From: Phoronis australis
Lineage: Eukaryota > Animalia > Phoronida
DNA: 64,000 nt
Direction: 5' to 3'
Assembly (NCBI GenBank): GCA_002633005.1
Contig: NMRA01000200.1
Location: forward strand, 641,951 to 705,950
Within the stretch, counting starts at the first letter, position 1. Each line of letters begins with the position of its first letter. Shown piece after piece: positions 4,906-63,447 of this stretch. The notes beneath the pieces were generated by a model. It worked only from the letters and a program-made list of their open reading frames with translations, was not told the origin of the DNA and ran no database searches. The position numbers and the translations under genes were made by a program.

Positions 4906-5682
4906 TTATGTAGTGCCAATCCGCTTTTCCGTATTCGAATTCGCGGTTGTAGTCCAACACTGTGCTGGTGACCACCTGGCTGGCGAGCCTAAAATCCACT
5001 CAAAGTCAATGATTGACAGCCAACGGCGATAATTATCCATTTGAAATAAAATCATAAAAATCACAACGGACGTTGTTTTTTTGCAACAAATATCTTTAAG
5101 AAGTTTATACCATCCAAAATTACTAAAGAAAATGTATTTTTGGCCGTAAAACCCATTACGTCCCTTGAAGTGCATTATCGGAAAAAGGCACTAAGTGCAA
5201 GTGTTGTGATTGAGACAAAAGGTTTAACAGTCGTAGGATGACTTGCGCATCGACTTTAATAAAAACTCGCAAACACCAATCCTCCAAATATTAGAGCCAA
5301 GATTTTGCACCCTCTCTTCAGAATAGCTTGTTAATAAATACTTACCATTGAAGAAGCCAGAATAGGAATCTAGTTGTCCATTTGAATCTCGAGTAAATTT
5401 GTCTTGATGGTGTAGGTCACGTGTGCATATCCAAAATCTGCGAATCGCAGATAAACCTACATTGAGTAAGAGATGAATTTGTAAAAACAGCTGTTCTTCT
5501 TTGGGAGAGATGATGACAAGATGGGCTCCTTCCACGTGACATTTTGACTTAGCCTCCCACCTGTCAACTGAAGCGCTGTCCATTTTGTAGCAAGAACCAC
5601 GATATGGAATCCAGCCACTGGCACAGTTTTGCGGCGACTCAATGGGGGAACACCCCACGAAGCAAATTACGATACCCAAAAC
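4906..5682 (-). pseudogene. C-type lectin domain gene, probably decayed
   Basis: Exon 5682-5346 (ATAG| ... G|GTAAGT) encodes CASGWIPYRGSCY...WEAKSKC...GAHLVII...EEQ.FL...FWIC. The conserved WIG is WIC. The next exon (acceptor at 4989) reads GSP...QC and then seems to need a frameshift; no intact WND/C-terminal cysteines are seen. Confidence 0.65.
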
Positions 5683-17551: not shown

Positions 17552-17885
17552 ATGTCTTTAGTGTCTTTGATTTGGACTGCCTGTATTATTATAAACCTTT
17601 TAGTCCTGTCTTCCGCCCAGTCTAGATGCTATTATTTCACCGAAGAACTACCCGATCCTTGTGACAAGATGAATTGTGATGTAGCGGGTGCTCTGTGCGA
17701 GCGTTCCATGGACGGCAAGGCCGCTCGCTGTGTATGTCCCAAACACTGCGAGTCGTTCGGAGATCACACTGAAGCAGGACCAGTCTGTGGCTCGGACGGA
17801 CGAGATTACGACAACATTTGTGAACTCAGGAAGTTGAAGTGTGAACAACTTAAAAATATCACTCTCAAATACAAGGGCAAATGTG
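17552..17885 (+). CDS. AGRN: Agrin coding exon 1: signal peptide + FS1
   Basis: [24 protein letters not shown] hydrophobic leader, then [12 protein letters not shown]...[16 protein letters not shown]...YKGKC; donor G|GTAAG (phase 1); possible acceptor CTAG at 17511-17514. Confidence 0.92.
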
Positions 17886-41800: not shown

Positions 41801-44800
41801 GTGTATTACTGCATCTGTCGCAATCTGTTCATGCGTATTCTTTTTGGGACTGTATTTGCTCATTGTTGTTTCAATTGTAAGTGATACGTGATGTATTAAT
41901 ATTTTCTCCTGATTATGCTTTTTACACAAAAAGTTAAATGTTGGTTAAATGTATTTTTGTATCTGTGCTGATAATCATATTGCTAGTACCTATACCCTGG
42001 TTAAAAATGTCATCTAAAAACAACACCTGCTTGAATTAGGGTTGCAACTTAAATTTCAGCCAAACAAGCAAACATGTTTGTTTCTTTCGAAGTTGCGAAA
42101 CTCAAAGAAGCAGAACCGCAAAGTTGAAAAGCTTTTCACAGATTTAAAACACTTTTTTAAGAGACCATTACATTCATTTCTGATTCTTGTTTCAAAGCCT
42201 ACAGACAAAATTTAAAAAACCAGGAATATTATGAACCTTAGCATGTGCTTAATTCGAATCCTGAGTAGAATTGCTTAGTATTATGACCTATAGAATTTGT
42301 TGATTTTAGATTTATTTTTGTGCCTGTTACAGCTGAATGTAAAAACGTTGTGTGTGAGAACAATGCTGTGTGCGACAGTGGGGTCTGTGTCTGTCCCAAG
42401 ACCTGTCCTAACTACCGAGATGTGGTCTGTGCCAGTAATGGAGTAACATACGATAACAAATGTGTGATGCAACGTGCAGCCTGTGAACTGGGCATCAAGC
42501 TGACTGTGGTGGAAATGGAAGAGTGTGAGGAGGATATGTCTGGCTCAGGCTCTGGTAGGCTCACTGCATGCCTTCCCACACATCTGCATGCTACTACACT
42601 GTATACATCAACACAGTGAACAGATCATGAAATGGCCTTCATGTAGTTAGTAGTTCATGACATAGCCTACATGACCACTGTCAAATATTGAACAGTTCGT
42701 GAATTGGCCTCCACAAACACTGTTGCATAAATATAGTGAATGCTTCACTGGCTGACATGAACATTTTCTCATTGACATAGAGTAAACAGCTAACTCATGT
42801 CAACAAGAACACTGTCCTATGTCCAGAGAACAATTTACTTCCCTATATGAAACCTGTCGTATGTGATGTAAACCGTTCACTTGTCAACATGAACACGGTG
42901 GTATGTGAAGTGAGCCGTTCACTTGTGAACTTATGAGCAACTAGAGTTAACAGTTAAACGTACCATTGTAAACGAAGTCACATATTAAATAAACATTTCA
43001 CTGGCCAGCATTAATGCTCGTCTTACACCAAATGAACATGTGGTGAACGTGACCATCGTCACACAGAGATCGAGTGATGTTTTTGAATCATGTATGTTGG
43101 CATTGTGTAAGATAGCTCTGTGTATAGTGTATTTGGTTCACTCACACTGCAAAGTTGATATGATTTCACTACTCGGTAGTTGGTCGGGTAGTAGTGCAAG
43201 CGTATTTTTGACTAAATTGAGTATTTGTATCAAATTACTCATTTCAAAGTTTGAATTAAGTTTGTGAAACATTACAGCATGTTAATTCTTCACATTTAAA
43301 TTGTTTTGTTCAAGATAAGCTGTAGTTATACTTTCAGTATTTTCTTGGATATGAGTTTAAATATTCATTAGGACAGGCACAGTCAGTAGATTTTCCTGGC
43401 CTTCACTGAAAGTTCTGTGTCTGTCTATATCTGTGATCATTAGATGATAAATTTAGCAAATGGTGAGAAAGCACAAACAAGACCGGCTCCACGTAGTGGT
43501 GGTTGATCTTAACAAAAGTCAGGAGATTACCTTGAAATTCAGATTTCTGTCTCATCACAGAATCGTATCGATGTTTCCTATTGTCGTGCTTGATGTGAAG
43601 GTTTTGATTTTTACTGTCATTAGGTAAATGTTTTACTTGAGACAAACTCTTTTTGAGAACATAGCTCCAATTGGCTTTCTTATTTTGGTAGAAACCTGTA
43701 ACTGTTATTCCCTGGGGTCCTTGTCACCCTCTTGCAACTCACAGACTGGTCAGTGCGTGTGCAAGCCAGGAGTAGCAGGACGTCACTGTGACCATTGTGA
43801 ACCTGGCTATTGGGGCCTGAGGAAAATCAAGGATGGTAACACTGGATGTTTAGGTAAGTAGTCTTACTCATTTAGGGATGCATGGGTCTCAGGATGATAA
43901 TACTCGATGTTTAGGTTAGTAGTCTTAATCATACAGGGATACGTGGGCCTCAGGATGGTATCACTGGATGTTATGTCATGTTAGCTTCACTGTCTGAAGG
44001 GAACATAGGTCTCATGTTGGCAACACCGCACGTGTTTGTAAGTTTCACACACTTAATATATGTGGAACTGTCTGACCTATAACTATGCCATCCACATTGT
44101 TTATTAGCAGGCTACTCGTATTCCTGACAAAACCTGTTGTGTGTCAATTGTAACTCATGTGTAGGTACGTAGTGTTTATGTACTTAACATGTATTCTGCA
44201 GCCTGCGAGTGTAACATCTACGGTTCATTGACGGATGATTGTGAACAGGAGAGTGGCCACTGTGTGTGTCTGCCTGGTGTATTTGGTGACACATGTGACC
44301 AGTGTGATGATGGTTTTGTTGGCCCAGGTGGATGCATATCAAGTAAGTTCACTTTGCAAAGTTCACTCATACCACCCCATTCAGTAATATTTGAATTATT
44401 AATCCAGACCCTCCACTTCAAACAACAATGGACTTGTCTCTATCGTATGTTTGATGTCCGTTGCCATGATCTGCTTCTTGAGAAATATTTGCTATCAATG
44501 TATAACCTGTCTAGTGGTAACAGTTGTTTAACTCCAAGTTGAATAACAAGTCAAGACGCTGTGTTTCATAATACGACGTTTGGACATGTCAGGAGAATGC
44601 ACCCCACTTGCATGTTGTATCCTAACCCTTTCCTGTATTCTAATTGTAGTCAGTCTTGTATATCCTCTCTGATTGTTGTGCAACCAGACCTGCTTCAAGC
44701 AACTTTTTAACTTGCCTGTTGCATGTTTGATTCTCTGAATGACAAGTGTTGCACAGTCTAGGTGTGAATGCACCCCAACTCCATGTAGTAGCCTCACCCT

Positions 44801-47800
44801 TACCTGCACTCTAGTTGTAGTCAGTCTTGTGTATCCTCTTTAGGTAGCCAGTTACCTGCCAGTTGTTCTCATCAAACCTGCCTCCATGGGGCCACATGTA
44901 TGGAAGAAGGTGGACAGGCTAGGTGTATATGTAATATGAAATGTAGCGCCTCTCAGACGGCTACAGCTGTGTGCGCTTCTAATGGCAAAACCTACAAATC
45001 CAGGTGTTATATCGAGCAGTTTGCCTGTAGATTGCAGCAGGATATCCGCTTTGTGTCGGATGGTCCATGTAGAGGTATGACAATAAACTGCTTAACGGCA
45101 CATGGCCACTTCTAAACTAGGAATTGCATCTAAGTTTTTCCAGTCATTACCTTTCCGGTAAAATTTCATATGCCGAGTGAAACTTGCGTTTTCAATAATG
45201 TTTCATCTTATGAACAAATTTAGAATTCAGCCATTGGGCTGTTTATTGTCTGTCATATCACTCACTAATGGCCAATAAGCTGTTATTAGCCACATACGAG
45301 CTGACTTCCTGTTGCACACTTGCTAGTCTTGAAATGCTTTGAAGCCTGTCTCAATGTCATGCATGTTGTGCTGAAGTGCCTTGCAAGTTTGGAAGTCACC
45401 TGGCATAGTTATTCACTCTCAATAGATTCTGCTGCTTTTAGCATCATGTTTAGGCTGTTTTTTGGAAATTTGCCATTTTTAATCGTGGGCAGTATAATAC
45501 ATGGAGAAAGATTTTGTTATTGGTGATGAACTCCACTTTTTCTGTGTTAATGATTTTACTAAGTACTTGCTACTGCAGTTTAGAGATTGTCAACAAAGTT
45601 TGTAGCCACCTGTTCACCATTGTTCTTCATTAGGTGAAATATGCCTGTAAATTCTTAATTTGACAAATCATAAGATGTCGGGAAGTCAGGCTTCTTGAGT
45701 CGTACACTTCGTAGTTGTCTGTAGCATGCTTTATGTGGTTCATTGTAGTTGTCATAGGCATCAGCGACTTGCACTAAAAGTCAGATTGACAAAGCAAGTA
45801 AATTGTGGACATCTGTGACATTACCACATCTAGCTGATACCTTATGACTAGTATTTTACACACAAGCCAAAAGTATAGAAAAACTGACCTGCCATTTCAT
45901 GTCAGCTGAACGGACGCTGATTCACCATCAGAGTAGTCTCCCCTGATAACCAAGAATGAAGGGGAATTAATGGGGAAAGTTAGCTAGGTGCAGGGCTAAG
46001 TCATTCTGTAATCAGCAATTTTGGCTGTTTACAAAATTAAGTGTAATGATGGGAAAACAGTGTTTTGTCTGATTACTTTTGACTTGTACTGTTTTGGCCA
46101 ATGCCGTTTGAAGTGCAATATTGATTAATCAACATTTTTTTCTCTTTACATTGCTGTGTGACACTTGTCATTTCAAGACCAGAACACCCAGCACCGAAAA
46201 ACTTTCACCACTACAAGAGTGATATTTACAGAAAAGCCCAATCCATATCCTGGCTATTGGTTTAACTTTTGGTCCTAACTTCTGAACATTTCTGTTTGTT
46301 TTGCTCTATCATCCCAACTGACCATTTTGTCAAGTATGTGTAATGCAGTACTACTATATTTTCTCCTTAAAACTGAAGCATCTTCTATTCTTGACCCGAA
46401 ACAGACTCATTCTCTAGGAGAAGTACGCGGCACATTAGAAGTACAAAGCCCTTACCAGAGCCCCCTATGCAAAAGCCTGGGTCAATTAACATTGAAAAAG
46501 CTGTGCAGGTTTGTTTCAGTTGGAAATCAGTTATCAAGGAATATTAATCAGACAGGTGACATTTCTGAGACAGTGTTAATTTCTTCAAGAAATCTGAAAA
46601 CAACATCTTTATTGAGTTACCGTATTTGCCCTAATAAGCACCCATGGCCCTATAATCGCCCCCCACACATTTTTCGACTTCCCTAAAATAAGCGCCCAGC
46701 TCATGAACGTGTATAATGCGAAAAATGCCTTACCTACAGTTCTAAAGTTCTAAAATTCTATAGTAACGTCTTCAATTTACTAATAATATCCGACAGTCCT
46801 GAAAAAATCATTGTGCGTGTAATTTCTAGACCACGAGCCTCGCCGTTATGTCAGTATTTAGCCATGACTATACACTTCAAACTTGTGCAGTGCTTCAAAA
46901 AGAATGCAGAAGTTTTGCTGATCTTGCGAAGAACGTGTCCCGCCATGGTCAGGCCTTTCAGAACAGACGCAGCATACTTGTCAATGGAATTGTATTGTAT
47001 CTTTCCCGTAGAGATCTCCCTCAACAGGAATCCAGATTTTTTTGTGCACATGAAAACCGTGAATCAAAGACTAATAAAAAAACTTAACCAAATGTTAAAA
47101 GCACCTGGCCAGGAAGTGTGCACTGCATACATGTAGACCTGCTACTCTGGTAAATGAACTCTGATGACACGCACGCGCCTGCTTACTCAGCACACACAAA
47201 CAGACAAACTTGAAAACAAATGTCACGTGACAACAACGTGTGTTCGTCCAAATTTTTCTCGTGTTGTGGGGTGCGATCTAGTGCAGATTTGAACTTAATC
47301 TGCTGTTAATCCTGACTCCACAGGAACTTAAAAAAATCTTAGGGACACTATTTGGAAAACTTAAGGAGTATCTCAGGTAATTTGTTGAGTTGAAATTGTA
47401 TTTTTATTCAAGAATTCAAGTTGCCCTATTGATGATCATGAGGCAGCAACGCCCTGGGATTTCTGCACAATTTTCTGAAAAAGGATCGTAATTTAACAAT
47501 GAAGTTTGATAGCAACGCACCACAATTTTGTGGAAAGTTTTTCATAGGTTACAGATAAATTGCAGAGCGTAAATTTGATGAATCCTAGCTTCCGATTTCA
47601 CCCATTTTGGAGACCAGGCTTCAACCGCCTTAGGCTATAATAAGCGCCCCAACGAAATGAATTATTCTAAGTGCCCCGGGCACTTATTAGGGCAAACACA
47701 GTATTCTGTATTGTGTTATTATAACGTGTCTCAACTCCTTTCACGTCAGTTGGCAAATTCACCTTCAGAACATGGTTTACTTTCAGACAGTGGCAACCAG

Positions 47801-50800
47801 CATGCAAACAACACAGACTCCATCAACAAAAGGTTGGTGTTTGCAATTTTATGTCTTCTCACCCTACTCTGCATCTGTGACTTGTATGCTTTATTTATCC
47901 CTCTTCAATTCTATGATTTCTCCCCCACCACCGCATCCATCTGTACAACATGACTATTTTTAGAGTTATGACTCTGCTGTAGCTCACTCTACAATTTTCA
48001 TCTTTCAATTTTGTGGCTTTTCACTGTGTAGTACATCCATTAGCCGAATTTCAGTTGTGAAATACATCAGTGCCTTATGACTTAATTGTCACCTAATAGT
48101 ACTCACATTAATGGACTGCATGTCAACTCTTTGAAGTTTTATCTATTGCCACAGTGTAATGCATCCCTTTGTTGGGTGCTTTGTGACTTATCTTCAGGTA
48201 ATGCATGCATTAATTGAGTAGTTAACTTGACTCTTCAATTTTTTGCGCCTACTTGTTTATATGTGGGTGCATATTGCCGTCATCTCTGTCTGGGCGTCCG
48301 GCTTCCAGTGTCCGCAGCTGTATCTCCTAAACCCCTTGCAGGATCATTATGAGGTTTGCCACATGTGTTCCTATCTTGGTCATGGTGGATGACGATGAGT
48401 TTCCGACCGATCCGAATACCGCTGTGCCCCCTAGTGGCACTTTTATTTTTTTTGTGGTTCTGTGGCCGAATGTCCTTAACTCTTTGAAGAAGCTTTATAA
48501 AATTTGAAAGATGTATTCCTATGAAATCAACGAAAACGGTAACAAGTGTCAAACTAGTCCAAATATCACTGTGCCCTCTAGTGGTAATTTTGTTACGTGA
48601 AATTTGCCTTTGTATCTTCAGAGTTCATTGATGTATTTTCATGAATTTTGGCAAATAGGTTCCTATTAAAGAGACGACAACACTTCCCATTTTTAGACAG
48701 ATTTGATGTTTTCTGTGCCATCTGGTGGCCATTTTTGTTATTTTGCATCTACTGTCTGGCATCCACCTCCCTATCTGCCATACCGCTCAAAGGATCCTTA
48801 TGAAAATTTACAGATGTGTTCCTGATGAGAAGGTCTCGAATGACATTGACTTTCGGACGGATCCAAGTATTGTGTTGTCTCCTAGTGGCGATTTTTTTTG
48901 CATCTGCAGCTGAATTTCCTTAAACCCTTTGAAGGGACTTTGTGAGATATGAAAGATGTGTTATGGAGCTGACAACAAATGTTAACAAGTGTTGTACTGT
49001 TCCAAGTACCACTGTGCCCCCTAGTGTGCAAAAATTTTTTACGTTGCCTCTGTATCTCTGAAGTTTGTATTTTCATGAAACTCGGCAAATAGGTTTTCAT
49101 TAAGGAGACGACAATGCCTTGCCAGTTTTGGACATACTTGATGTTTTCTTGCAGTATTCCAGTGTACTCCACGACCGGTTTTAATTTGTCATAGTGTCCG
49201 GTGTGGCCACACTCCTGACATATTTAGATATCGCATGACTGGTTTAAAAAACTAGTGACCAGTTTGTAAACAAGGCATCGCCATTGTTAACAAACACCAT
49301 TTAAGCTATTGAATAAATGAATGGTCTTTGTTTTATTGACATTTATTTCCTCTTCACTGTATTATGTTATTACAGTGGTGAATACGGCACTGCACGATGC
49401 CATGGCCTGGGCGGTACTGATGTACCACCAACGCTTGTATTTAAATTTGGGCTCACACTTTTGAAATCCTGGATAAACGCCTGTCTGGAAGTGCTGTCAA
49501 ATGAACAGGCATCTCAAGTCACAGGCAATGCGTACATTTTTGAATTCTCAATTGTTTGGGTTGGCTGATATTCTTGTTGCTTGTAGAAATATAATCCTGT
49601 CCCAGAAAGAGTGCAAAAGACCTAATTTGATTTTCTTTTTCATCCAGCTAAGCAGGGTGTATCATTATATATTACTTGAACCCAATGAGCAATAGCAAAT
49701 TTCTATCTGAATAACGCGCAGTAAAGCTTCAACCAAAACATGATCAACTGACAGCTTATATGATTCTGTTTCAGATGCTGGTCTCTTGACTTTCTCATTT
49801 TCTGGGAATTCTTTCTTGCAACTGAACTTTAACCTTAATGCCAAAAAACAACTAACAATTGAGATGGAGCTGCTGAGCTTCAAACCAGATGGATTGTTAA
49901 TGTACTGTGGACTGAATAACAAGGACTTCATTTCATTGTCTCTTGTGGACTCATTTGTTGAGTTTAGGTAAGTGACTAAAGCCCATGACCTTGAGTAAAG
50001 GATGGACATTTATCCCACTAGGCCACAATGCCTCCTCGTGAATAGGTTACATATACATAGACTACGATGGGCATTATAATTCATCCAGGTGAAAACTCAG
50101 AAACTATGATTAGCATAGCGTTATTTAGAATAGCTAGTCAACAAAAGAGGGATGTGTGGAGGTAGCAGGGCTTCCTCAACTTTTCCTCATGTTATCGTCT
50201 CCTGGTCCTTTGTGTAGTGATCTTTGTGGTCATATCTTTTAAAGTGAATAATTTTTTTACAAGTGGGAGAATGAGAGGCTATCAGAGTGCCGAGGCGTTA
50301 CCTAAATCTCCTGTAATTCTGGAGACAGTCCAAATGATCTGGTAAAAAAGCCGGACAACAGCAATCAACCCTACATCTGGAGTAGAATGATTTGGGACAT
50401 ATGCGGAGAAATTTGACCAAAATGGCTTTGTCACCTGTGCTCAGGCTGCCGTGTTAGTCGATCATAGCTGTAGGTAGTGGACTCAATAAGTTAGTACTGA
50501 AAGACATCAGCTGTGTTTATGTTATATTGCTGTGCTATGACTAACAGGCTTCTGAACAGTGTCTCAATGCCATAGATGACCTCCCCTTGACTGGGACAGG
50601 CTTCTTCAGCAAATACGGCATTTTGACTTTTTCCTAATTGCTTTGTAACATTCACTGGATACCGAAACTAAAAAGCTGACTGCTCTGCTGATGCCCAATG
50701 ATTGGTTCGTTCTGAACAATCTGTAATTACTCAGCGATTGCAGATGTTATGGAGACATGACTGCTGATCAGTGAGCAGATGTCTGTGCTTCTCTATCTCC

Positions 50801-53800
50801 TCTGCAATCTTTCTCTGGTCATCCTCATCCAGATCCACTCCTTCCTTCTTGTGCTTAGTCTTTTCCTGTCACTCCACTGTGTGGCTTCTGCTCTTCACCA
50901 CCTTCATTCCACATTACATGTTCTCCATGGCAGTATCAAGGTGGACACACCCACACAGCCACTTGCTCTGCTCTCATTAAAATGCCCTTTATAATCTCTG
51001 AACCTTTTTTACTTGTTTGATATACCGCATACCTGTTCTTCGAATTGGTGAGCTGATACTGCAGTCTTGTCATCCAAGTGTTGCCAGCTGTGTGCAACTT
51101 TGAGTAGAACTTTCTTGACATTATTAGCTTAAAGTGCTCCACACACAGTAAACTTCAAAAGAAACTTCGAAAGAACTCCACTAGGCTGCTAAATTTGGGA
51201 TAAACTGCTTGCCAGTAATGTTTGGCATCTTAGTCAAACACTTATCACATTAAGGTAGTGTTTTGTCAAACTTTTATGTCGTAGTTTAAGTTGACGTTAT
51301 TGTCCTAGCCGTTTATTGTTTATTTCTGAATGGATTTACATGCAAATTGTGGAAATTACGAAAACGTACGTGGAGACACTGTCGTATTCTAGTCGGAAAG
51401 AGTTTCCATGTCGTTCGGTTTATTTTGAAAATTGTTAAACCAGTGCTGGTACGGTACACAATTATGGTGACATGCTATGAACAAACTGAGTAGCAACATG
51501 GCTGCGATGAGATTGTATACCTACTGAGCATCAGTCCTAACTTTTCCGTCCTCGAATTGCAAAAATCCTCAAAGTTGCACAAAGTGCAACCAAGCTAACT
51601 TTGTTCGCCTGATCATATTTAACATATTTCAAAAAACACTTTACAGAAATGAACATTGCAGGGTTCACCACGAGTGATATTAGACCGGCAACTAGACTAT
51701 AATGGTTTTACTTATTTTTGTCTTTGAACAGTGACTCAAAGCTACTGTTTTTTTGGTTCAGTTGTTTGTCGCTGATTTCTTTTATCAAGCTTCAGCTCAC
51801 TGACACTGAGACTGGTTTGTGCTATACATTTATTCAGGTATCACCTTGGCAGTGGGGTGAACATCATTCGAAGCTGGTCTCGCATTATACTTGGAGTGTT
51901 TACACATGTAGTTGCTAAGCAAAAAGAACGGGATGGAGTGTTGATGGTAGGTGGTCAACGAGTGACCAGTGGTTCAAGTAAACCAGGTGCTAGAGAACTC
52001 AACCTTCATGGAGCAAATATCTTTCTTGGAAATGTGGACGCTCTATCCAAGTTGTAAGTTTTGACAGCTGGAAGTAATGATTGACAGCTAGAAGTAATGA
52101 TTGACAGCTAGAAGTAATGATTGATTGGCATTGATGGAGCATTTTTGTTGAAGAATGCTGGTTGCTGACACATCCTTGAATTAAAAGTTACCATTGTAAT
52201 TCACAAACAGTCTATTATCGATATCCAACATTTTGAAAATTGTATTTTATTTTATTTGAAGTAATTTTGTTGAATGTAATTTGCTTTTCTGTTAAGCGAT
52301 TTTAAATTCCCTCATTACAGGCTCATACTTAAAATATTAAATTGCTCATTAGAGGACCATAGTGTAAAAGAAAGTTCCAATGCTTATCAGTTTCAAATTA
52401 TTGTACTCTCAAATGCATTGATGTTGTTCTAGTGCATATAAACAGACTGGCACCAGTCAGGGCTTCGAAGGCTGTATCAAAGCTTTCAAAGTGGAAGGTA
52501 GCTCTTGGACCAAAATATACAGTCTGCAACTCAGTTCAGAAGATATTGTTACCAGTTTTAATGTCGGTAAGATTGCTACTTCTGAGGCGTGATCGAAAGA
52601 TCTATGTAAATTTGCATATAAGGTGCCTATTCTACCTTAGTTGTTGTGGTAATGGTGGGACCTCCCAAATGTTCTTTATACCATTCGTAACTGGAGAACT
52701 CGCACTTATGGGTTAAGTCATCATGCTGTTATCAAGGTGGGGACTGCTGACAGATCAGCCTACTGGTGTGTCAGCTGTTGATGTTATTTTGGTCTTACCG
52801 GTGTACACCACTTTTTATCACACGGTTTGGACTGATTGTGAAGTTTTTAAAAACTGATCAGTGGTCAATATTTCTGAGTCGAAAAGTGTTTATACTGACC
52901 ACTGTAGTGTAATGGATTATGTATATTGACTGCTGTTGTGGTGACGTCATTTTGATCAATTTTTAAACTTTTTGCCAAGTACAGAGAGATCTCACTGTGA
53001 TTTTGTGCCTGGATCATTCTACTTGCAATTATAGCCTCACCTATTATCACTGCACAATGAACACGTGACCACACTTGAAAGACACCCTTTTTATGTCATT
53101 CAGTTTCTGACGTCCAGTTTGTTTTTTAATTAATTTTGCTATATAAAACTCTCAGTGAGTGAAAACCACCATGATTTAAACATTGCAGATCCCTTCATCA
53201 TGCGAATAGACAAACTATTTAAAGGCTAAAATAAATAACTTTGTTCACTCACTTTCAATGAACGTCATTTGCATGGACTTAAGTGCACGTAGCTCGCAAT
53301 TGATATATTAACCAAATGACAGTTGTTGATTTTAATGACCTTGGTGTGGCTGAAAATGATTTTTCCAAAATATGATTGGTTGTTCCTTTGTCCATTCTGA
53401 ACTTCTCTGGGAAGTTTTATTAAAATCTCTTTAAGCTTCTGAAAACTTTGAAAATTGATAGCTGATTGACCAGCTTGTCTATGTACTACTTCATGTACAA
53501 ATCTATTGTGTCTTGTCATAAAGCCATCTAGTTCTCAATGAATTTGGTTTATCAATGGGCCTAGTAATGAATGATGATGACAATGATCTCATCTAGTACC
53601 ATGGATTTGTGCCAAACCTGCTACAGAAATTCCAGTGATTAGAACTGTTACCTGTAATTTGGCTTTTTAACTGAACGTCTTGATGAGCATCTTGTTACAC
53701 TTTTAGTTTCTGAGGGCGTTGATTGCAACAGTCCTGTCAAGTTCGATGGTTCTACATGGTTGGAATACAGTAACCTAGGCATACAGAGGTGAGCTCGTGT

Positions 53801-56800
53801 GTCAGCTATATAACTATGAGTATGTCAAGTTCGATGGTTCTACATGGTTGGAATACAGTAACCTAGGCATACAGAGGTGAGCTCTTACGTCAGCTATACA
53901 ACTATGAGTATGTTAAGTTTGATGGTTCTACATGGTTGGAATACAGTAACCTAGGCATACAGAGGTGAGCTCTTCTGTCAGCTATATAACTATGAATATG
54001 TTATGTTCGATTGTTCTACATGGTTGGAATACTGTAACCTAGGCATACAGAGGTGAGCTCTTACGTCAGCTATACAACTATGAGTATGTTAAGCTTGATG
54101 GTTCTACATGGTTGGAATACAGTAACCTAGGCATACAGAGGTGAGCACGTGTGTCAGCTATATAACTATGAGTATGTTAAGTTTGATGGTTCTACATGGT
54201 TAGAATACAGTAACCTAGGCATACAGAGGTGAGCTCTTCTGTCAGCTATATAANATACAGTAACCTAGGCATACAGAGGTGAGCTCTTATGTCAGCTATA
54301 TAACTATGAATATGTTATGTTCGATTGTTCTACATGGTTGGAATACAGTAACCTAGGCATACAGAGGTGAGCTCGTGTGTCAACTATGTAACTATGAGTA
54401 TGTTAAGTTTGATAGTTCTACATGGTTGGAATATTGTAACCTAGGCATACAGAGGTGAACTTTTAAGTTACTTACATAATTGTGAAGCTATAAGTGTTGT
54501 TATTGATGAAGAAAGTCATATACACCTATTACTTCTAAAAGTATTGATTTTACTGAAACAAAAATGTTCAGATGAGTTTGATCAAACGTGCTATTTCACT
54601 TTACAGCCACTAAATTATTAGACTTCATTAGGGCTGCCTCATGGCTAGCTAAACAGGAACGTAACCAAAATGCAGGCGTGGGAGAAATCCGTCACTGAGT
54701 TCTGACTTATTGCATAATTACATGTACTTGTCATACAAACAAACTCCTTTAATTCATCTGGCTTTACATTTATGTTATCTATATTATGACTCCAAAGCCT
54801 GTCCCATCAATGACTTCTTGACCATGGTTTGTAAATACGAATAAACGCGACCCTCTACACACATTCACTGTCATGTTTACATGGCTGTGGACTCCGTGAA
54901 ATTCGTCACTGCTGGATATACTTAATTTGCCCTAAAAATAGCCCATGCATCTTGATACATGTGCATTTGTCACGTTTTTCCCCGTGTGTGGGTGGGCGCA
55001 GGTTGTTACAGATCGGTGCTAATAGCTTTCGGTGCGATGATCGACTGAAGACTGGTTCGAGTTATTAATCCCGACCGTACGTTCACAAGCCTACTCAAAC
55101 AAAACGTCCGACGTAATGTCTGTTTATGCTCCAGCCAGTGCTGCGAAGCCTTGACTTGTGATGAACTTCTGAGATACTTCCAGCAACTGATTCAATAACC
55201 TGCTGACTCTATAGCTGGCTCTCTATTGACTATCGCTGTAACTGCTGATTCTCTTCACTGCAACTCAACTGCACATGTAGTTCTCCTGATTAACTTTCTT
55301 GAACTTACTTGATCTGACTTGATCTCCCGACTTGATCTGACTAACACAAACCCATGCTTGTGTATTTATAGCCTAATGCATTGTTCTGGAACTTTACATC
55401 AATTCAAGCACATTCTAGAACTCCTGAATCTACCCAATCATTCTACAAACACATACTAGTCTCTAGAATATTCCAGACTGCATTAATCACTGTCATGCTA
55501 GAGTCTTCTAAAAGTTCCACACTATACTGTAGTAAATCAATTACATCATCACTGTTCTGACCTCAGTCTTCTAGAAAGTTCCACACTATTTTGTAGTAAA
55601 CAAATTACATCATCACTGTACTTAACTCAGGGGTCATGCCAATCAAACAGAATAACAAAACAAAACAATACAACTAAAAATACTGTCAGACCATATTCTG
55701 ACAGCATTCACACAATTGTCACTCCGTGGATTCTTGCACAGCACTCGTGGAACAGAAAATTTCAATGAGCTCCCTTCTGGAGGCAACTGCATCCGAAATC
55801 CCCATCCCCTACTGCATGTGTATGTTAGGCCCCCCACGCCTAGTGCAGGTTTATTTGTAGCTCCATCCCCTTATTATTTCAAGCCCACGTAGTCCCTGGA
55901 GAATTCTTCAGTAAAATAATTATAGTAGTCACCTGTCTGACTTGTCAAATGGCCGTGATCAGTTTTTGCACATGATGCCTGAATTTGGGATAAGTGCACG
56001 CATAATTCACGGGCTATGCTCTTGCAAATCATGAAGACAAAATATTCTGTAATGTACAGGTGTGTCAACTCTGTTTACATGTTTATTTCAAAAACAAATA
56101 TACACGTTTACAAGTGAGAAGTTAGGTCCTGGGGTCTGTTTCATGAAGTGTCTTGATTTGAGAAAGGAATTTGGCCTTTAGCTCCTCATAACAATTTCTA
56201 AGAAATAGTTGAGCCTCACATGATCAAAATTCTATGAGAATATACACATCACTGTTAGTTACTGAGATAATTTTTGTCAATTATTTTTCGATTGTTATGC
56301 GCTCATAATTACTTAATAACTAAAACTTTGTACAGCAATTCATGAAATGGAACCGTAAGACCGAATTTCTGTCTTTTAGTCACTTTTATGAAACAGACCC
56401 CAGAATCCGCACGTGTCAACAGAAAGAATTTGTAGGAGGGGGCTATGATGGAATGCAATACAACTGGTTTCATTTCACTTACTTTCCCCTGTGTAAACAG
56501 GTATTGAGAAGTGATTACTTCAAGATATTACGTTGCTGCCTGTAAAGTCGCAAGTGGCTGTACAATGATATACTGGAAACTTGGTCGAATTGGCCAGTCA
56601 CAGGTTTAATTTTTAATTTATGCTTAATGTTATGTTACTGCACATTACCTGATTGGAAAGTCAAATCGTCACTGTCATTGTCTGAAGTTTCCAATGTACT
56701 AAGTTTTCATTATTCCATTCTGCAGACAAATTACTGTTGGTGAATCCCGGGGGTGAGTTATAGTTAATAAATATGCAGTTGAAAAGCTGCTCGAGAGAAA

Positions 56801-59800
56801 AGTTTGCATAAGGCGATTTTTTTTAAATAAGACCATCTTATTTAGTCTCAAAGTATGTGGAATGGTTCCGCACTTTTTTATATCCACATAGGGCCATAAA
56901 AATGGTATGAAACAAATCTATACCTTACCCTAAACGTGTTTACAATGTTACATTTTTATTTCCTCCATTAGCATTTTCTTAATAAGGAGTTCAGTTTTTG
57001 CAATGCGGAATATTCCACACTGACTGGGGAATATTCCGCACTCAGACTGCGGAATATTCCGCAAAATTTGTACTGTGTATATCTAATATAACAAGAATTA
57101 ATGTCAAATAATAAATTCACCAAAATGTACAATATTTTATGAAACTCATCGCATATTCATGACATTCATTACATATTCATGATATGTTTTTGCGAAGTAT
57201 GTTGATTTGATAGCATTAAAGATAGTATTACTCACTTGCTGATTCTTGATGTTTTGGCTTTCAGTTGAGTAACTGGCCCATGCGGTACATCCACACGTTT
57301 TAATGAGCTACATAGCAAACTAGATTGCGTATTGGCCACAAAGAATAGTTGTCTCGAGATCGCTGACCAGTACCATATATATTGCAAACACAGTAGAAAA
57401 TTTCTTACCGGTGCTGTCAAATTCTTAGAGTTGTTTACCAGATGATTATGGAGCTGAGAAATGTCACTTGAAAAAGGATACAGTACTTTGTTGTAGCCAC
57501 GCTAAAGGAGTGAGGATAGCAATTAAGATTGTCCTGACTAGTGAAGGCACTGGGAAACTCATGCCTGGCTCAAGTCTGGCTCACGGTGCGCCTGCACTTT
57601 GTTCACGCCTAACTCACGATAAGTCACGCTTACTTTCATGCCTGTTGTCACTGTCGATTAATGCCTCACTCTTCAGTTCTGGTCACGCCTAACCAGAGCA
57701 GAGGCAGCCCAGATGAAGTCTCATAACTCAGTGACTGTATTGTCTGTACCCTATCATTTCTCTTTCAGAAAGAAAAGTGAAACAAGGAATGATATAAGCC
57801 TACATTTCAAGACATCATCCCAGAATGGCCTATTGTTAATAATACACAAGTCCAGCTCCATCTCGGGTGACTACCTGACTTTGGCTGTTGTAGGTGGTCG
57901 ACTGGAGTTGTCCTACAATTTGGGCATGCAGTCAGCCGCCAATCTACATATACTGCGTTCTGGTGTACGTGTCAATGATGGCAAGTGGCATAAAGTGCAC
58001 ATCACTAGGTGAGCAAGCTTTACTTATTGATGTGGCCTTTTGCTAACCATTTCACAAGCAACTGACTTTTCAGAACTTTCATGAAAAATGCTCGATTTCT
58101 TTGTAGCTTTTTTGTAGCTTGTAGCTTTGTCTGGATATTAAAGGCAAAGGCAACCTTTCTTCATGTCATTTTTAGTAGAAATAAGGTTCGCTGGTTATCC
58201 CAGACATATTTTTCAGTTAATTACAGCTTCTCATAATTTAATTCATTACTCGTCCCCTACACTGGAAGTGAAGTTTAGGGAATCAAGAATTACGTGGCAA
58301 TTTGGTTTTGCGTTCAAGTTTACTGTGAGGATCAATACTACTGTTTCATGCTTTTTTTTCTAAAATTGTCGTCACCACTTCCTTCGACGAGTATTCTATG
58401 ACAAGCTGGGTTATTAGAGAACTCAATTACATTGGATTTAGGGATTGTTTAATTTGTAGTAACCTGAAATTGACTGGAGTCGGTGACCCATGTCACAGTG
58501 ACTGTATTGACGTGAGTGACGCAGACATTTTTCATATACTATAAGGGGCTGAGGGCTATAGCCCCCACTTTTTTCGGTGCTGCGCTGCCCATGGTATATG
58601 AGCGGTGCACTACAGGGGGACTGGGGGTGCGTTAACCCCCCACATTTGTCAGTGCTGCGTCTAATGAGCTATATACAAGTATGGAGATGACACAATTATA
58701 CTCGCAAGCCAGACAGCGCGTGACATGTGGTCCGCCGTATTGATTATGAACGAAATGTAAACAAAAGCACGGTTGCCTTACGGAAGCCAGGGAATTCTCA
58801 GAATAAAATTTGAAATTTTAAATACTAACGAGGTTTTAAAATATTGGTAACTTAAAGCAATGTAAACTTGTGACCCACACATTGCTTAAACCGTCATATA
58901 AGCCTGCAAAGACAAAATTCCTAATGCTTTGGCTGAAATTCTCATGGAGAGCTGCTAGGGCCTGGCAGGTTTTGCTAGCTCAGTCAAAGAGACAATCACT
59001 GAAATGTATAAAATTTGGAAATATTTCCGTTATACTACGTGGTGTTAAACAGTGATTAATCTTTGCAGTTTTTTTCAAAAATAAAATGCATGTAAGGGGT
59101 GCTGAGGTGTCTCAAGAAATATTACTACACTATGTTTCTTTAACTATCTGGTATTACTTGTCATAGTACCTAATTCATTTTAGCATGGTGAACTAGTGGT
59201 TTGTACAGTTTGAAACGACATTCTCTCACAATTCACAAAGTTGTGTCATAGACTCTGTTGTAAAACATCACGACAACTGCAATACATATATTGCTTCCAT
59301 TCAGAGGGCAATTGGACAAGAGGCTTTAGTGCTGACTGGAAGTCAGTTTGTTACACAGTGGCCAGGCGGTCACGACCTCATAGGATTTGTTGAATTACAC
59401 GCAAGAGCAGAGCATGAATTTGGCGATCTCTTAGAAAATTATTCCACGTTCACATCAGTACGAAACATACATAACGGCAAAGTATCTGGTGGAGTGACAG
59501 TAATGGTAAAGAACAATAATAGGAACCAAAATAACTCGCATCTGTGAGAATTTGGAAGACAGAGTATATTTGCATCTCAAAGATTTGTTTGCTGGCTCAG
59601 ACAAGCCAGATGTAATAATAGGTTTTATTTATCTCCCTCCCGAAGGGTCATCATACTACAGCCACGACATTTCTGACTGCGGTGTTGATCGTCTCGAGGA
59701 TGACTTTACCTGCTTAAAGAGTAATGGGAAATTTAACCACTCACGGGTTATTTTGACAGGTGACTTTAATTCAAGGACAGCTACACTCAGAGACTACATC

Positions 59801-62800
59801 CCAGATGACGATATCACCCAATTCAATGTCCTTGCCAATAGCGATTGTTGTTATGTTCAAAATAATTTTGAAAAATCAAGAAACAACCAAGATGCGAAAT
59901 CTAATTACTTTGGCAAAGAACTTGCCAAATTTTGTGCAGTATATGGTACGCACATAGTTAACGGTAGATACCCCTCAGACAGAGAAGGAAACTATTCGTT
60001 CGTCTCCACTCGAGGATGCAGCACTATTGACTATGTTATTGCCGAGGCATCTCTGTTCGAATATATTAATGACTTTGAAGTATTAAACTACGACCAGTCA
60101 GGCCATTTCCCTATCATGTGTGCTCTACGTTATCTAGAACGTACGGAAGCTGATACAGACGGATCGAACACTAGTGTCAGAACAACCCCATTGCACTGAC
60201 TCAAGTGGCAGCCACACAAATCTTCAAGTTTTAAGGATAGACTGGGCAGCGTTGACACCACCGAGAAATTATCCCAAATATCTTCAGCCATCGATATGGA
60301 TATTAAAAAAGCAGTTAAATTAATAAATGAATTATTCCACGCTTGCGGCGCTGACATGAAAATCAGCAAGAAACCCGCAGTAAACAGGCAGCAGCCAGGG
60401 TGGTTCGACAACGTTTGCGAGCAAAAGAAAATAGAAAAACATAATTTATTGAAACTTTTCAGATCCACAAAGTGTGTGGATACACTACGTAATTATATTG
60501 ATACGAAAAGACAATTTAAGGAAACCTGTCATGAAAAAAAGAATTATAACGAACAAATAAGAAATTATGTGATTCAGTGAGAGATCCAAGAATATTCTGG
60601 GCAAACGTGAAGTCAATCATAAATCCGAACAATATTCAACAAGCGGATATTTCATCGAACGAATGGTATAACTATTTTGAAAAACTCTTGAACACTGAGC
60701 CTGTATGGGAAAACAGGGAATTCCTTAATAATTTGCTGGACGAAATGCGAGAGCACGATGAAAAGCTGCAATGACTGTGCCAACAATGACTGTGATGAAA
60801 CACACACCTGGCCAGGTGGTCACATTGTATTGCCCTATCAGCTGTTTTAAAAACTAGATAGACCTTTGTGTAATGCCTTGCTGACAGATGTCCCTTTGGC
60901 GGTTGGTCTTATCTGTATAACTTACTGGATTCACTGGACAACTTGAATCATACTGTCTGAGAGGTTGGTTGATATAAATTTTCTGAAATTCTGCTGTTGC
61001 CACTTGTCATATATGGTGAGTGACAACTCAGTTAATCTGTTACTCAGTTAACCTCAAACATTAGCTGGCCAATTTGCTCGACTCTAAGACTGTGACTGTG
61101 AAACTGCCAGGGCAAATGAGACTACATTTGCATTTGGGCTATACCGATCAATATGCTGCCTTCTCGATTTGATCGCTGGCATTCATTGTTAGATACATAT
61201 CATGCTGTCAGATAACTGTTATGGTCACAAGGTACCTAAACTACACAGTCAACGGACTCTTAAATATGGGCACGGATGCATGAACACGACTCACGGACCT
61301 GCAAACACCGTCCACTGACTCACAAACACGGGAACGGACTCACAAAACATGATCCACGCACCCAAAGACATGGGTCACGGACTCATATTCACAAAGTAAC
61401 ACGGTTAACGGACAGCCAAACACGAGTCATGGACTCATCGGCTTCCTGGGTCAGCTGACATCTTCATTTTGTCTGTAAACCGTGTTTGGTGGTCTGTTAA
61501 TCTTGAATATGAGTCCATGTCCCGTGTATTTGGGTGCGTGGATCGTGTTTTGTGAGTCTGTTCCCATGTTTTTGAGTCAGTGGACGATGTTTGCAGGTCC
61601 GTGAGTCGTGTTCCTGCGTCCGTGCCAGTGTTTATGAGTCCGTTGACCGTGTAGTTTAGATACGTTGGGTCAGAGCCACTGTGTGTCTAGCTCCAGACAG
61701 AATGCCTGTATGCAATTTTAGGAACTGAGGTAATATTGTTTCCAAGTCATAAGATTCGGACACGAGTTGGCTAAAGCATTGAATCTAGCGTATATTTGCA
61801 AAAAATACATTACTCGCTTTTATCTTAATTCATTGAAAAGTTAACAGTGAAGATCAAATCCACTTGATACCAACATTTAGGGTTATGGCGGTAATGTTTT
61901 ATGCTTGACATATGTCCCGAAAATGGTAGGTGCGTCACAAACTCCGTTTCCAGAGATAAAAAGGAGACTATATATAGGTCACTTATTATGACACCTTAAC
62001 GGTACAGAAATATGAATATAAAATATTAAATACACAAAAAATAATCGCTGGAAAGATTGGTAATAAAAAGCACAGCACTCAGGTGCGAGGAAGTATCTGA
62101 CCAATAAGGTGGCAGTGGGTGGGAAACAATGGAGAGAGATTGAACTCGAATGTAAGTACAGCTAAAGCAAAGGTTTGACAGGAAACACGTGATTAGTGAG
62201 AACAAAGGTAAACCCTAAGGACACGTGATAAAATATGAATAGCTTCAAACTAGTCTAACACACTGAACAATTGGAGTTGGTCAAAATTAGTCTGATGAAC
62301 CCGCAAACTATTAGTTTCCACTGAGCAGAAGGACTCTTGGTCATAGTTTTACTAGGTGTACATTTGCGTCAAGTTTAAATAATGTCAATTTTATTTCTGT
62401 AGAAATCACCGCAAGGGCCATTTGTTAGTGGACAATCAATACCATGTCACTGGTGTGTCCAAGGTTGGTGCAACTACTCTAGACACAGATGGTAAACTCT
62501 TCATGGGTGAGTCATGATCAGTTGGGGTCATATGAAAAGTTTTGGTGAAATTTTGTCTTGGCAATTCATTGAAATTAAATCAGTTGTGGTACACAGATAA
62601 AGGTGAGGTTGTGATTACCAACACACACACAAGATTGTGGTGATCAGGGAACTGGCTATGTGAGATGAAAATATTGTGTTCTATTCTGTTTTGTTTATTT
62701 CCTCTATTGGTTTACCTATAGTCATTTATAAAGTCTGTCAGTCATCTGTCCTTGTGAGCCAATGAAAGCTCAGTAATCTAGGATTGCCTCCTTTATAGTA

Positions 62801-63447
62801 CCACGTTATATTTAACAATCTGTATTTTGATGAGGAAAAAACAAGCTGAAAAGTTTCTGAAAGCGTTAAGTAATTCTTCACTTATGTTGCATACAAACAA
62901 TTACCAAATTTTTCTTTTCTTTTCATTTTTCAATGGATGATTAATTTGCTAAGTCCTGTAAACTTTACCAAATATTGTTTTATGACATTTACACAATACA
63001 AACTATACTTGGAGTAGACTAAAATTTTTTTATTCTTTGTTTCTGAAGAAATTTGACAAAATAAAATTTCCCTTGTCAACCATATTGTGTGGTAAATAAC
63101 TGAAGAGTCACTGTATTGCACAAGCGATCATGCTGTCCACATTTTAATTAAAATTTGTCTTGTGGCCCATTATGGTTCAGTATGGATTGGATATATTATC
63201 ACTTCATCATCAAATAACTCCTGTATTAGCTTATTGTTCATTGTTTGAACTATTTATTTGCCAAACACTAACAATAAATACTGTAATTTGTCTAGGGGGT
63301 AAGAAGAATTTACCTACTGGTCTTCCTGCTGGCTACTACCAGGGCTTCAGAGGTTGTATTACTGACGTGAAGATTAACTCCTACGACTTACACATGGCCC
63401 GTGATCAGGATAGTATCATGATAAAGCCACTTAACTTCTGTGAATGA
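17552..63447 (+). CDS. AGRN: Agrin-like multi-exon gene (FS/Kazal x8, laminin-EGF x2, laminin G x2), complete from ATG to TGA
   Basis: 19 well-supported exons plus 2 tentative Ser/Thr exons join with GT-AG boundaries and matching phases (3363 nt with the tentative exons, 3276 nt without). The domain order FS-SGSG-LE-LE-FS-ST-LG and the LG3 motifs [17 protein letters not shown] and [15 protein letters not shown] match agrin. Confidence 0.9.
24496..24714 (+). CDS. AGRN: Agrin exon: FS2
   Basis: TTTGCAG| DPCGNKTC...[14 protein letters not shown]...EGPCNG |GTAAGT; phase 1-1. Confidence 0.92.
25394..26091 (-). mobile_element. Solo LTR, family A copy 1
   Basis: TGTCA...TGACA termini, 5-bp TSD CAGAA on both sides; highly similar to 54968-55703; TATA-like and AATAAA motifs on the minus strand. 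Confidence 0.85.
26744..26875. repeat. About 69-bp tandem duplication
   Basis: ATAAGAATGCTGTCAT.ACCCATCCGAG...CAGGCAACTACAGAACAAGA twice. Confidence 0.85.
28431..29501. repeat. Near-identical 537-bp direct duplication either side of an N (likely unmerged contig overlap)
   Basis: 28431-28963 and 28968-29501 differ by a few SNPs and abut the N at 28964. Confidence 0.85.
29494..29899. mobile_element. hAT-type MITE
   Basis: TIRs of about 39 bp containing CTCAGCTTCTGATCGTCCCCAATACA; 8-bp TSD GAGCTAAC (29486-29493, 29900-29907). Confidence 0.75.
30497..31358. mobile_element. Solo LTR, family B
   Basis: TGTCAGA...TCTGACA termini with 5-bp TSD TACAG on both sides. Confidence 0.7.
32794..33006 (+). 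CDS. AGRN: Agrin exon: FS3
   Basis: TTCTAG| [14 protein letters not shown]...[14 protein letters not shown]...FGNC |GTGAGT; 213 nt, phase 1-1. Confidence 0.92.
33086..33609. mobile_element. TTAA-flanked MITE (Kolobok-like termini)
   Basis: TTAA|GGTTAAGTAGGACTTTAT...ATAAGGACCCACATAACC|TTAA; a related diverged copy lies at about 14600-15000. Confidence 0.65.
34125..34337 (+). CDS. AGRN: Agrin exon: FS4 (paralog of FS3 exon)
   Basis: TTCCAG| [14 protein letters not shown]...[14 protein letters not shown]...FGTC |GTACCT; 213 nt, phase 1-1. Confidence 0.9.
34783..34892 (+). CDS. AGRN: Agrin exon: FS5 N-half
   Basis: TTCCAG| [36 protein letters not shown] |GTAAGT; phase 1-0; not in the ORF track. 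Confidence 0.9.
36498..36721. repeat. 43-bp minisatellite, about 5 copies
   Basis: TTATTCAGTGGATGCATGCACCTAATCTCATCACAGCATCCCG at 36498, 36541, 36584, 36627, 36670. Confidence 0.95.
36998..37100 (+). CDS. AGRN: Agrin exon: FS5 Kazal half
   Basis: TTTGTAG| [34 protein letters not shown] |GTATGT; phase 0-1. Confidence 0.9.
37088..37510 (+). repeat. About 45-bp highly degenerate tandem repeat starting at an exon/donor junction
   Basis: ATGCAG(T)/ATGTAGT cores at 37320, 37366, 37411, 37456 and 37501 resemble the junction GCATGCA|GTATGTATCTTG. Confidence 0.6.
38330..38700. repeat. Degenerate short-period minisatellite (GAGTGACCCTCACCCT-like)
   Basis: Many imperfect copies of an 18-20-bp unit. 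Confidence 0.8.
39687..39778 (+). CDS. AGRN: Agrin exon: FS6 N-half
   Basis: TTGTAG| [30 protein letters not shown] |GTAAGT; phase 1-0. Confidence 0.9.
40306..40365 (-). pseudogene. tRNA-derived remnant (SINE head or pseudo-tRNA)
   Basis: Minus strand AGCTCAGTGG (A box) ... GGGTTTGAGTCCCAG (B box-like); no complete acceptor stem. Confidence 0.5.
41054..41168 (+). CDS. AGRN: Agrin exon: FS6 Kazal half
   Basis: TTTCAG| [38 protein letters not shown] |GTTAGT; phase 0-1. Confidence 0.9.
42333..42554 (+). CDS. AGRN: Agrin exon: FS7 + acidic Ser-Gly GAG attachment motif
   Basis: TTACAG| [13 protein letters not shown]...[14 protein letters not shown]...[12 protein letters not shown] |GTAGGC; phase 1-1. 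Confidence 0.92.
43692..43853 (+). CDS. AGRN: Agrin exon: laminin-type EGF 1
   Basis: TAG| [42 protein letters not shown]...GC |GTAAGT; phase 1-1. Confidence 0.92.
43830..43975 (+). repeat. 61-bp degenerate tandem repeat spanning the LE1 exon end and donor
   Basis: AGGATG.TA.CACT.GATGTT units at 43830, 43891, 43952. Confidence 0.85.
44202..44342 (+). CDS. AGRN: Agrin exon: laminin-type EGF 2
   Basis: CTGCAG| [34 protein letters not shown]...GC |GTAAGT; phase 1-1. Confidence 0.92.
44844..45074 (+). CDS. AGRN: Agrin exon: post-LE FS module (vertebrate FS9 equivalent)
   Basis: CTTTAG| [18 protein letters not shown]...[13 protein letters not shown]...FACRLQQDI...GPCR |GTATGA; phase 1-1. Confidence 0.9.
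46178..46218 (+). CDS. Tentative Thr-rich linker exon ([14 protein letters not shown])
   Basis: TTTCAAG| ... |GTGATA; phase 1-0, complementary to the 47787 exon. Splice sites are weak and other boundaries are possible. Confidence 0.35.
46620..47701. mobile_element. Tc1/mariner-pogo-type non-autonomous element
   Basis: TA|CCGTATTTGCCCTAATAAGCACCC...GGGCACTTATTAGGGCAAACACAG|TA. Confidence 0.75.
47787..47832 (+). CDS. Tentative Ser/Thr-rich linker exon ([15 protein letters not shown])
   Basis: TACTTTCAG| ... AAAG|GTTGGT; phase 0-1, fits the phase-1 LG1 acceptor; S/T-rich as expected for the agrin mucin-like linker. Confidence 0.5.
48237..49175. repeat. Interspersed element with about 6 degenerate 140-160-bp tandem subunits (Helentron/HINE-like)
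   Basis: Recurring TGTGCCCCCTAGTGG and TTCATGAAA...GGCAAATAGGTT blocks; subunits three apart are most alike. Confidence 0.6.
49775..49967 (+). CDS. AGRN: Agrin exon: LG1 part 1
   Basis: TTTCAG| FSGNSFLQL...PDGLLMYCG...[15 protein letters not shown] |GTAAGT; phase 1-2. Confidence 0.9.
51838..52053 (+). CDS. AGRN: Agrin exon: LG1 part 2
   Basis: TTCAG| [12 protein letters not shown]...RDGVLMVGG...[14 protein letters not shown] |GTAAGT; phase 2-2. Confidence 0.9.
52061..52124. repeat. 20-bp tandem repeat x3 directly after a donor
   Basis: TTGACAGCT(A/G)GAAGTAATGA at 52061, 52081, 52101. Confidence 0.9.
52433..52566 (+). CDS. AGRN: Agrin exon: LG1 part 3
   Basis: TTCTAG| [22 protein letters not shown]...DIVTSFNV |GTAAGA; phase 2-1; GFxGCI LG motif. 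Confidence 0.88.
53707..53788 (+). CDS. AGRN: Agrin exon: start of LG3, ending at the z-site-equivalent intron
   Basis: TTTTAG| [27 protein letters not shown] |GTGAGC; phase 1-2; colinear with vertebrate FDGRTFVEYLNAVTES (recalled sequence). Confidence 0.88.
53735..54460 (+). repeat. 88-bp tandem array copying an exon 3' end plus splice donor (at least 9 donors)
   Basis: CAGAG|GTGA junctions at 53788, 53876, 53964, 54052, 54140, 54228, 54278, 54366 and 54454; N at 54254. Confidence 0.95.
54968..55703 (-). mobile_element. Solo LTR, family A copy 2 (inside the z-site intron)
   Basis: TGTCA...TGACA termini, 5-bp TSD GCATT on both sides; homologous to 25394-26091. Confidence 0.85.
56726..56752 (+). 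CDS. Candidate 27-nt alternative micro-exon at the z-site (inserts QITVGESRG)
   Basis: Branch-like TACTAAG, pyrimidine tract TTTTCATTATTCCATTCTGCAG|, 27 nt with no stop in phase 2-2, donor GG|GTGAGT. Confidence 0.55.
57559..57757 (+). promoter_or_regulatory. Intronic YCAY cluster (candidate Nova/Pasilla splicing enhancer)
   Basis: TCAC/TCAT at 57559, 57581, 57603, 57614, 57624, 57636, 57648, 57666, 57683, 57721 and 57754, just upstream of the 57769 acceptor. Confidence 0.45.
57769..58008 (+). CDS. AGRN: Agrin exon: LG3 part 2
   Basis: CTTTCAG| [15 protein letters not shown]...[20 protein letters not shown]...VNDGKWHKV |GTGAGC; phase 2-2. Confidence 0.92.
59290..60774 (+). mobile_element. 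Non-LTR retrotransposon (LINE) ORF2 fragment: APE endonuclease + linker, no RT
   Basis: [28 protein letters not shown] and SGHFPI motifs, then a PGWFD linker; stops and frameshifts; truncated near 60774. Confidence 0.85.
61232..61663. mobile_element. Foldback element with arms of about 190 bp built of roughly 21-bp subrepeats
   Basis: GTACCTAAACTACACAGTCAACGGACTC... is the reverse complement of ...GAGTCCGTTGACCGTGTAGTTTAGATAC; short central spacer. Confidence 0.8.
61910..62235 (+). mobile_element. Family X copy 3 (partial)
   Basis: ATATGTCCCGAAAATGGTAGGTGCGTCACAAACTCCGTTTCCAGAGATAAAAAGGAGAC and CCCTAAGGACACGTGA match the other copies. Confidence 0.65.
62403..62506 (+). CDS. AGRN: Agrin exon: LG3 part 3
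   Basis: CTGTAG| [34 protein letters not shown] |GTGAGT; phase 2-1. Confidence 0.92.
63296..63447 (+). CDS. AGRN: Agrin terminal coding exon (end of LG3)
   Basis: TCTAG| [24 protein letters not shown]...LNFCE, TGA stop at 63445-63447. Confidence 0.92.

Follow-up and report, generated by a model that had tools for sequence, protein, structure and literature searches.

The window, which is the whole 64-kb stretch of Phoronis australis DNA that was analyzed, contained a reduced agrin gene, and the intron at the z site of its last laminin-G domain (LG3) held a 27-nt segment that is tentatively read as a used, tissue-restricted cassette microexon (Table 1). This favored reading is nearly tied with a second, that the segment is a chance pseudo-exon. 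If the exon is used, most transcripts would skip it, and inclusion would extend the z loop, presumably a surface loop of LG3, by nine residues (QITVGESRG). Recognition would rely on a strong GG/GTGAGT donor and a nearby branch-like word, and would be limited to a less common cell type, for which neurons are the most plausible choice.

Table 1. Positions of the agrin gene and of the features at its z site, numbered from the first letter of the window.
Feature	Position	Strand	Description
Agrin-family gene	17552..63447	+	19 coding exons, 1091 aa; built from open frames and splice sites
Exon upstream of z site	53707..53788	+	Phase 1-2; final residues match those that precede the z junction in mollusc agrin
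88-nt tandem array	53735..54458	+	Repeats the 3' end of the upstream exon and its donor; N at 54254
z-site intron	53789..57768	+	Phase 2, 3980 nt
Branch-like TACTAAG, pyrimidine tract and TGCAG acceptor	56697..56725	+	Acceptor 5.9 bits, mid-range among the true acceptors of the gene
Candidate 27-nt cassette microexon	56726..56752	+	Phase 2-2, stop-free; would insert QITVGESRG
GTGAGT donor of candidate	56753..56758	+	10.1 bits, above 14/18 true donors (leave-one-out)
YCAY-bearing downstream part of intron	56753..57768	+	YCAY count 28, a weak excess; Nova might bind here
Exon downstream of z site (LG3 body)	57769..58008	+	Pfam Laminin_G, E 1.5e-13; sense RNA depth 20-33 from a close copy

The agrin gene and its z-site intron

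The reading frame of the spliced gene was intact over all 1091 aa. Domains were arranged in the order signal peptide, seven follistatin modules, two laminin-EGF modules, one further follistatin module (eight altogether), LG1 and LG3, with Pfam domain calls taken on 5 of the 19 exons. The agrin signature of follistatin repeats, two laminin-EGF modules, follistatin and C-terminal laminin-G was present, and the best database relatives were proteins named agrin, in agreement with the first-pass annotation, which had called the gene an agrin. The first exon led to tick agrins in database searches, while the nearest LG3 sequences were those of bivalve agrins (46%, 43%, and 42%, among 166 proteins compared), and the domain carried the longer SYNLGxQ loop of molluscs. 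The LG3 tree placed the window weakly with protostomes (82/94, no starred clade), molluscs being nearest by path. The gene is read as probably lophotrochozoan. When the downstream exon was used as query in a word-based search of proteins, 0 of 82 candidates matched; the 27-aa upstream exon had no match in the PDB, and an atlas search returned generic Kazal clusters only. A C-type lectin domain exon was found on the reverse strand upstream of the gene (5227-5682; Pfam Lectin_C, E 4e-5), and a LINE-type element fragment, with an endonuclease match under the Pfam cut-off, occupied 59510-60771 in the intron after the LG3 exon.

No match to NtA, EGF, or LG2 was found within the window, and its first LG domain had LG1 as best match in most relatives. 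Because tblastn of the window with eight agrins recovered LG1 and LG3 only, with no EGF or LG2 exon, the gene is regarded as a reduced agrin; the full mollusc and vertebrate form has EGF modules and three LG domains. The 27-nt segment might accordingly be a relic, a true z exon of a full-length agrin that now lies idle in a reduced, loosely constrained copy. This is considered quite improbable. It would fit the lack of EGF modules and of LG2, both of which mollusc agrins have, and the EGF-like words, out of frame, that remain at 52567-52780 in the intron directly after the LG1 donor and are possibly a decayed EGF2-EGF3 block. It would also fit the loss of the constitutive N-x-I/V just before the z site (N-L-G in the window gene) and the overrunning of the upstream donor by a tandem array. 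On the other hand, the intact reading frame speaks against a relic, and the agrin of C. elegans normally has two LG domains (PMC1939731).

The z-site intron parted the 16 residues that close the upstream exon from the 15 that open the downstream exon. A gap-free alignment was obtained between this junction and the z junctions of human, amphioxus, and sea urchin drawn in the S2 and S3 Figs of PMC12445529, and the sea-urchin and nematode introns at this junction are phase 2 as well (S3 Fig of the same source), which bears out the first-pass placement of the intron at the z/B site. In the skipped form, the z loop was 17 aa long, equal to that of Mercenaria, Potamilus, Patella, Ptychodera, and Parus (bird z0 model). 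Since this is the standard length, the 27-nt segment would be optional and need not be constitutive; the constitutive reading was rejected, the skipped form being also that of the RNA contig set X1.

The upstream exon was followed by an array of 88-nt units, overlooked in the first pass, which provided nine donors counting the real one (eight extra copies). Either a repeat of variable length or an artefact of assembly could account for the array, which has an N inside. Every unit also contained one weak in-frame 18-nt AG..GT pair (the first at 53859-53876). The copies were considered as in-frame alternative exons and rejected: their upstream acceptors are at codon boundaries, whereas the donor before them is phase 1, and the frame meets a TGA immediately when the exon is read through.

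Splice signals of the 27-nt candidate

Inspection of the intron confirmed the elements listed in the first-pass annotation, with TACTAAG at 56697-56703, a pyrimidine-rich tract at 56704-56721, TGCAG ending at 56725, and GG/GTGAGT closing a stop-free phase 2-2 segment of 27 nt. Splice scoring matrices were derived from the 18 introns of the gene itself, and the comparison set consisted of in-frame, stop-free AG..GT pairs of 9-51 nt in 42.6 kb of intron. The candidate scored 16.0 bits (acceptor 5.9, donor 10.1) and ranked second of 1136 pairs, and none of 1343 antisense pairs reached this value. The top score (17.0) belonged to a 12-nt in-frame pair at 29642-29653, between follistatin exons 2 and 3, with a poor pyrimidine tract. 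Simulated introns of 3980 nt equaled the candidate in 17/600 and 23/600 runs, a chance of about 3-4% per such intron. When a branch-like word was also required, the counts fell to 2/600 and 5/600 (chance <1%), a filter that is given little weight because it was chosen after the site had been seen.

These values have to be weighed against a chance pseudo-exon, i.e., good-looking splice words in an ordinary intron that are unused beyond noise, which is a plausible second reading, also short of an even chance. Ten sense-strand pairs reached at least 14 bits, six of them frame-breaking, and three of these six, in other introns of the gene, scored 18.6, 15.7, and 15.5 bits. As these three score about as high as the candidate, the true background is probably nearer 5-10%. 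The codon-aware exon-versus-intron likelihood ratio was 0.96 and hence neutral. Moreover, the site was inspected on account of its homology, and similar looks happen across many genomes. Even so, a probability of 0.03-0.04 by simulation, or perhaps 0.05-0.1 empirically, for an intron named by homology, together with the absence of antisense pairs of equal score, counts against chance.

The region that contains the candidate (56390-56773) was nearly free of both-strand repeat reads and lay between two repeats. In the 1016-nt downstream part of the intron, 28 YCAY words were counted against a mean of 18.5, and 17/275 sense intron windows reached 28 (top 6%); across the gene, YCAY clusters were no richer on the sense than on the antisense strand. 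Nova bound to these downstream words might assist inclusion, by analogy with the Ciona enhancers treated in the available part of PMC12445529. Neural microexons that depend on eMIC/SRRM share with the candidate a short, frame-keeping length and a branch-like word near the acceptor, but have an exact CUAAY, a long AG-free zone, UGC close to the acceptor, and a UCUC-rich tract (PMC8797185). The candidate had CTAAG at -27 instead of CUAAY, an AG-free zone of only 22 nt, no UGC other than the one within the acceptor, and no UCUC, and so departs from most of the signature of fly eMIC-type neural microexons.

In its phase-2 intron at the LG3 z junction and its short, frame-keeping, stop-free form, the candidate resembles chordate Z exons, but the encoded peptide lacks their N-x-I/V/F. 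As the first-pass annotation had noted for the N-x-I/F motif that binds LRP4, QITVGESRG contains no Asn, and no such motif is created at either junction. The insert would therefore not be expected to fill the LRP4 pocket in the manner of chordate Z inserts. Since the constitutive upstream N-x-I/V is lost as well, chordate-type LRP4 activation is unlikely. It is more likely that binding of LG3 to matrix partners, e.g., dystroglycan, would be retuned, a guess from the chick isoforms, of which the muscle and neural forms served as positive and negative controls, respectively, for dystroglycan binding in the accessible part of PMC1939731.

RNA across the z junction

The RNA consisted of a contig set (X1), in which 9% of the words from the last exon region were present, together with three raw runs (X2-X4) with a matching species label and unspecified tissues. 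Reads were aligned to 54470-58300, a range that begins beyond the upstream exon, and 18-19% of each raw run was used. Over the downstream exon, 22, 22, and 19 reads covered position 57775 (63 in three runs). In X3 and X4, sense depth was zero in the bin of the candidate, with 22 and 19 reads over the start of the next exon. In X2, depth in this bin was 1.5, similar to that of the preceding intron bins (2.0 and 2.4). Judging by the distance-to-end values, the X1 piece began at 57767, a start compatible with skipping but not with inclusion.

No joint between 56752 and 57769 was present among the joints listed for these four RNA sets of a divergent copy from unspecified tissues. All 14 listed joints fell in a repeat at 55024-55570, and sides as short as 22 and 25 nt were placed elsewhere. 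Provided that a 27-nt piece is placeable, the probability of missing the exon in X3 and X4 together would be 0.03 at 10% inclusion and 0.51 at 2%. Inclusion is low or absent in the sampled RNA, i.e., in unspecified tissues and a divergent copy. Four RNA sets without inclusion are what a chance pseudo-exon would give, although their divergent source and unspecified tissues soften this argument. An interspersed repeat was present in two copies (54968-55703 and 25394-26091), 81% alike, with heavy RNA read cover on both strands.

The divergence of the RNA was evident in the 240-nt downstream exon, in which eight differences from the window were listed, five of the letters lying in residue-changing codons. 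At these eight sites, 502/532 read-letters carried the variant and 30/532 (about 6%) did not. The RNA comes mostly from another allele, species, or paralog, about 4-5% divergent from the window copy. Such variants would be expected of a relic if another copy supplied most transcripts. The divergence may instead be one between species or populations, and no second agrin copy was seen in the sequences covered.

Predicted z-site splicing in other invertebrates and its possible meaning

The z switch is a textbook microexon that turns a matrix protein into a synapse organizer. In the first-pass annotation z exons had been treated as vertebrate, which needs correction: Ciona Z6/Z5 have been cloned, are Nova-dependent, and encode N-x-F/V/I, and an amphioxus Z exon has been predicted, as given in the available part of Hossain et al. 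(2025; PMC12445529). According to the same portion, no Z exons were found in C. elegans or sea urchin, and Z exons are proposed to be chordate-specific; invertebrate agrins are also said to lack z inserts or the insert motif in PMC1939731 and PMC2874008. The window candidate shares with the vertebrate z/B exons (z8, z11, and z19) the phase-2 LG3 intron, a small frame-keeping insert, and flanks that align without gaps, but vertebrates have two neuron-specific exons and the window a single candidate without N-x-I/V. With Ciona Z6/Z5 and amphioxus it shares the status of an invertebrate microexon in the same intron with YCAY words downstream (in the window a weak excess), and the amphioxus exon likewise encodes 9 aa; the motif encoded by those exons is absent from QITVGESRG (compared with the available text of PMC12445529).

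Predicted protein isoform models were compared for 15 invertebrate species with at least two parsed LG3 models each; two Mya, two Scylla, five Manduca, and two Cloeon models were left out as unparsed or truncated. Cassettes lay exactly at the z junction in 5 of the 15 species, four beetles and one crab. Portunus had a 149-aa cassette in 5/6 models (XP_045102489 versus XP_045102497), and Photinus one of 56 aa in 8/10 models (XP_031335466 versus XP_031335471). The ladybirds Coccinella and Harmonia combined an acidic exon of 39 and 42 aa, respectively, with a 5-aa microexon, and all four combinations were found among six models each (Coccinella XP_044765425/6/7/9; Harmonia XP_045482693-6). Henosepilachna showed a 5-aa difference at the junction between two models. 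The 5-aa microexon was common to the three ladybird species, basic, and without N-x-I/V/F. The Scylla models differed by one residue, both Oratosquilla models had a long z loop, and a longer loop was also present in a crinoid (one model). One Manduca model, among the five unparsed ones of which it was the one checked, stopped directly at the z junction with a brief alternative tail and without LG3.

No z cassette was found in the models of the bivalves Mercenaria (10), Ruditapes (13), and Mya (4) or the hemichordate Glandiceps (2), and no difference at the z junction in those of Manduca (10), Cloeon (3), Panonychus (2), Rhipicephalus (2), and Oratosquilla (2). A 6-aa difference between tick isoforms X1 and X2 was rejected as a z cassette, being located in LG2, and two metagenome loci at 38% identity were rejected as sources of orthologous introns, their introns not being orthologous. 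The predicted gene models make z-site splicing look real in arthropods and show an optional site beyond the chordates, though none in the molluscs to which the window gene is closest. No published report of protostome z-site isoforms was found in the literature covered, from which most subscription journals were excluded.

Arthropod cassettes and the window candidate are alike as optional inserts that occupy one and the same junction in agrins of protostomes, and the 5-aa ladybird exon is also motif-less; they differ in that the arthropod cassettes are mostly long and acidic (39-149 aa), besides the basic 5-aa one, with no resemblance to QITVGESRG. As gene models, these cassettes are firmer than the 27-nt candidate. 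The first-pass proposal of an isoform switch at the LG3 loop thus stands in part: a non-chordate switch is backed by the arthropod models, but the divergent-copy RNA of the window gene gave only skipping. Alternative splicing at the z site, in models of both arthropods and chordates, weighs against a chance pseudo-exon, while the absence of z cassettes from the models of the bivalves, the nearest named relatives, and the dissimilarity of QITVGESRG to any z insert found weigh toward it.

Altogether, the used cassette microexon is supported by its score rank, the homology-named intron, the 17-aa skipped loop, the arthropod cassettes, the repeat-poor stretch, and a neural microexon programme present in non-vertebrate bilaterians (Torres-Mendez et al., 2022; PMC8797185, in part), and is opposed by the lack of inclusion in RNA, frame-breaking high scorers, neutral coding, the bivalve models, the eMIC mismatch, and the strand symmetry of YCAY. 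The candidate is at best a motif-less version of z-site splicing, of a kind already present in arthropod gene models.

The chordate-specific claim, in the part of PMC12445529 available, rests on one nematode and one sea urchin. If the motif-less protostome exons are real, either the regulated site preceded the LRP4 motif or the loop was recruited repeatedly. An unlikely idea, though one worth stating, is that bilaterians inherited a splicing switch in the agrin z intron from their ancestor, that this switch predates the N-x-I/LRP4 synapse signal, and that the window would be its first spiralian example. Were this so, chordates would have added the LRP4 motif, arthropods acidic and basic cassettes, and the window gene a third, unrelated peptide. 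The arthropod models, including the four isoforms of ladybirds (cf. z0/z8/z11/z19), make this idea testable, and the window exon, if confirmed, would extend z-site splicing to spiralians.
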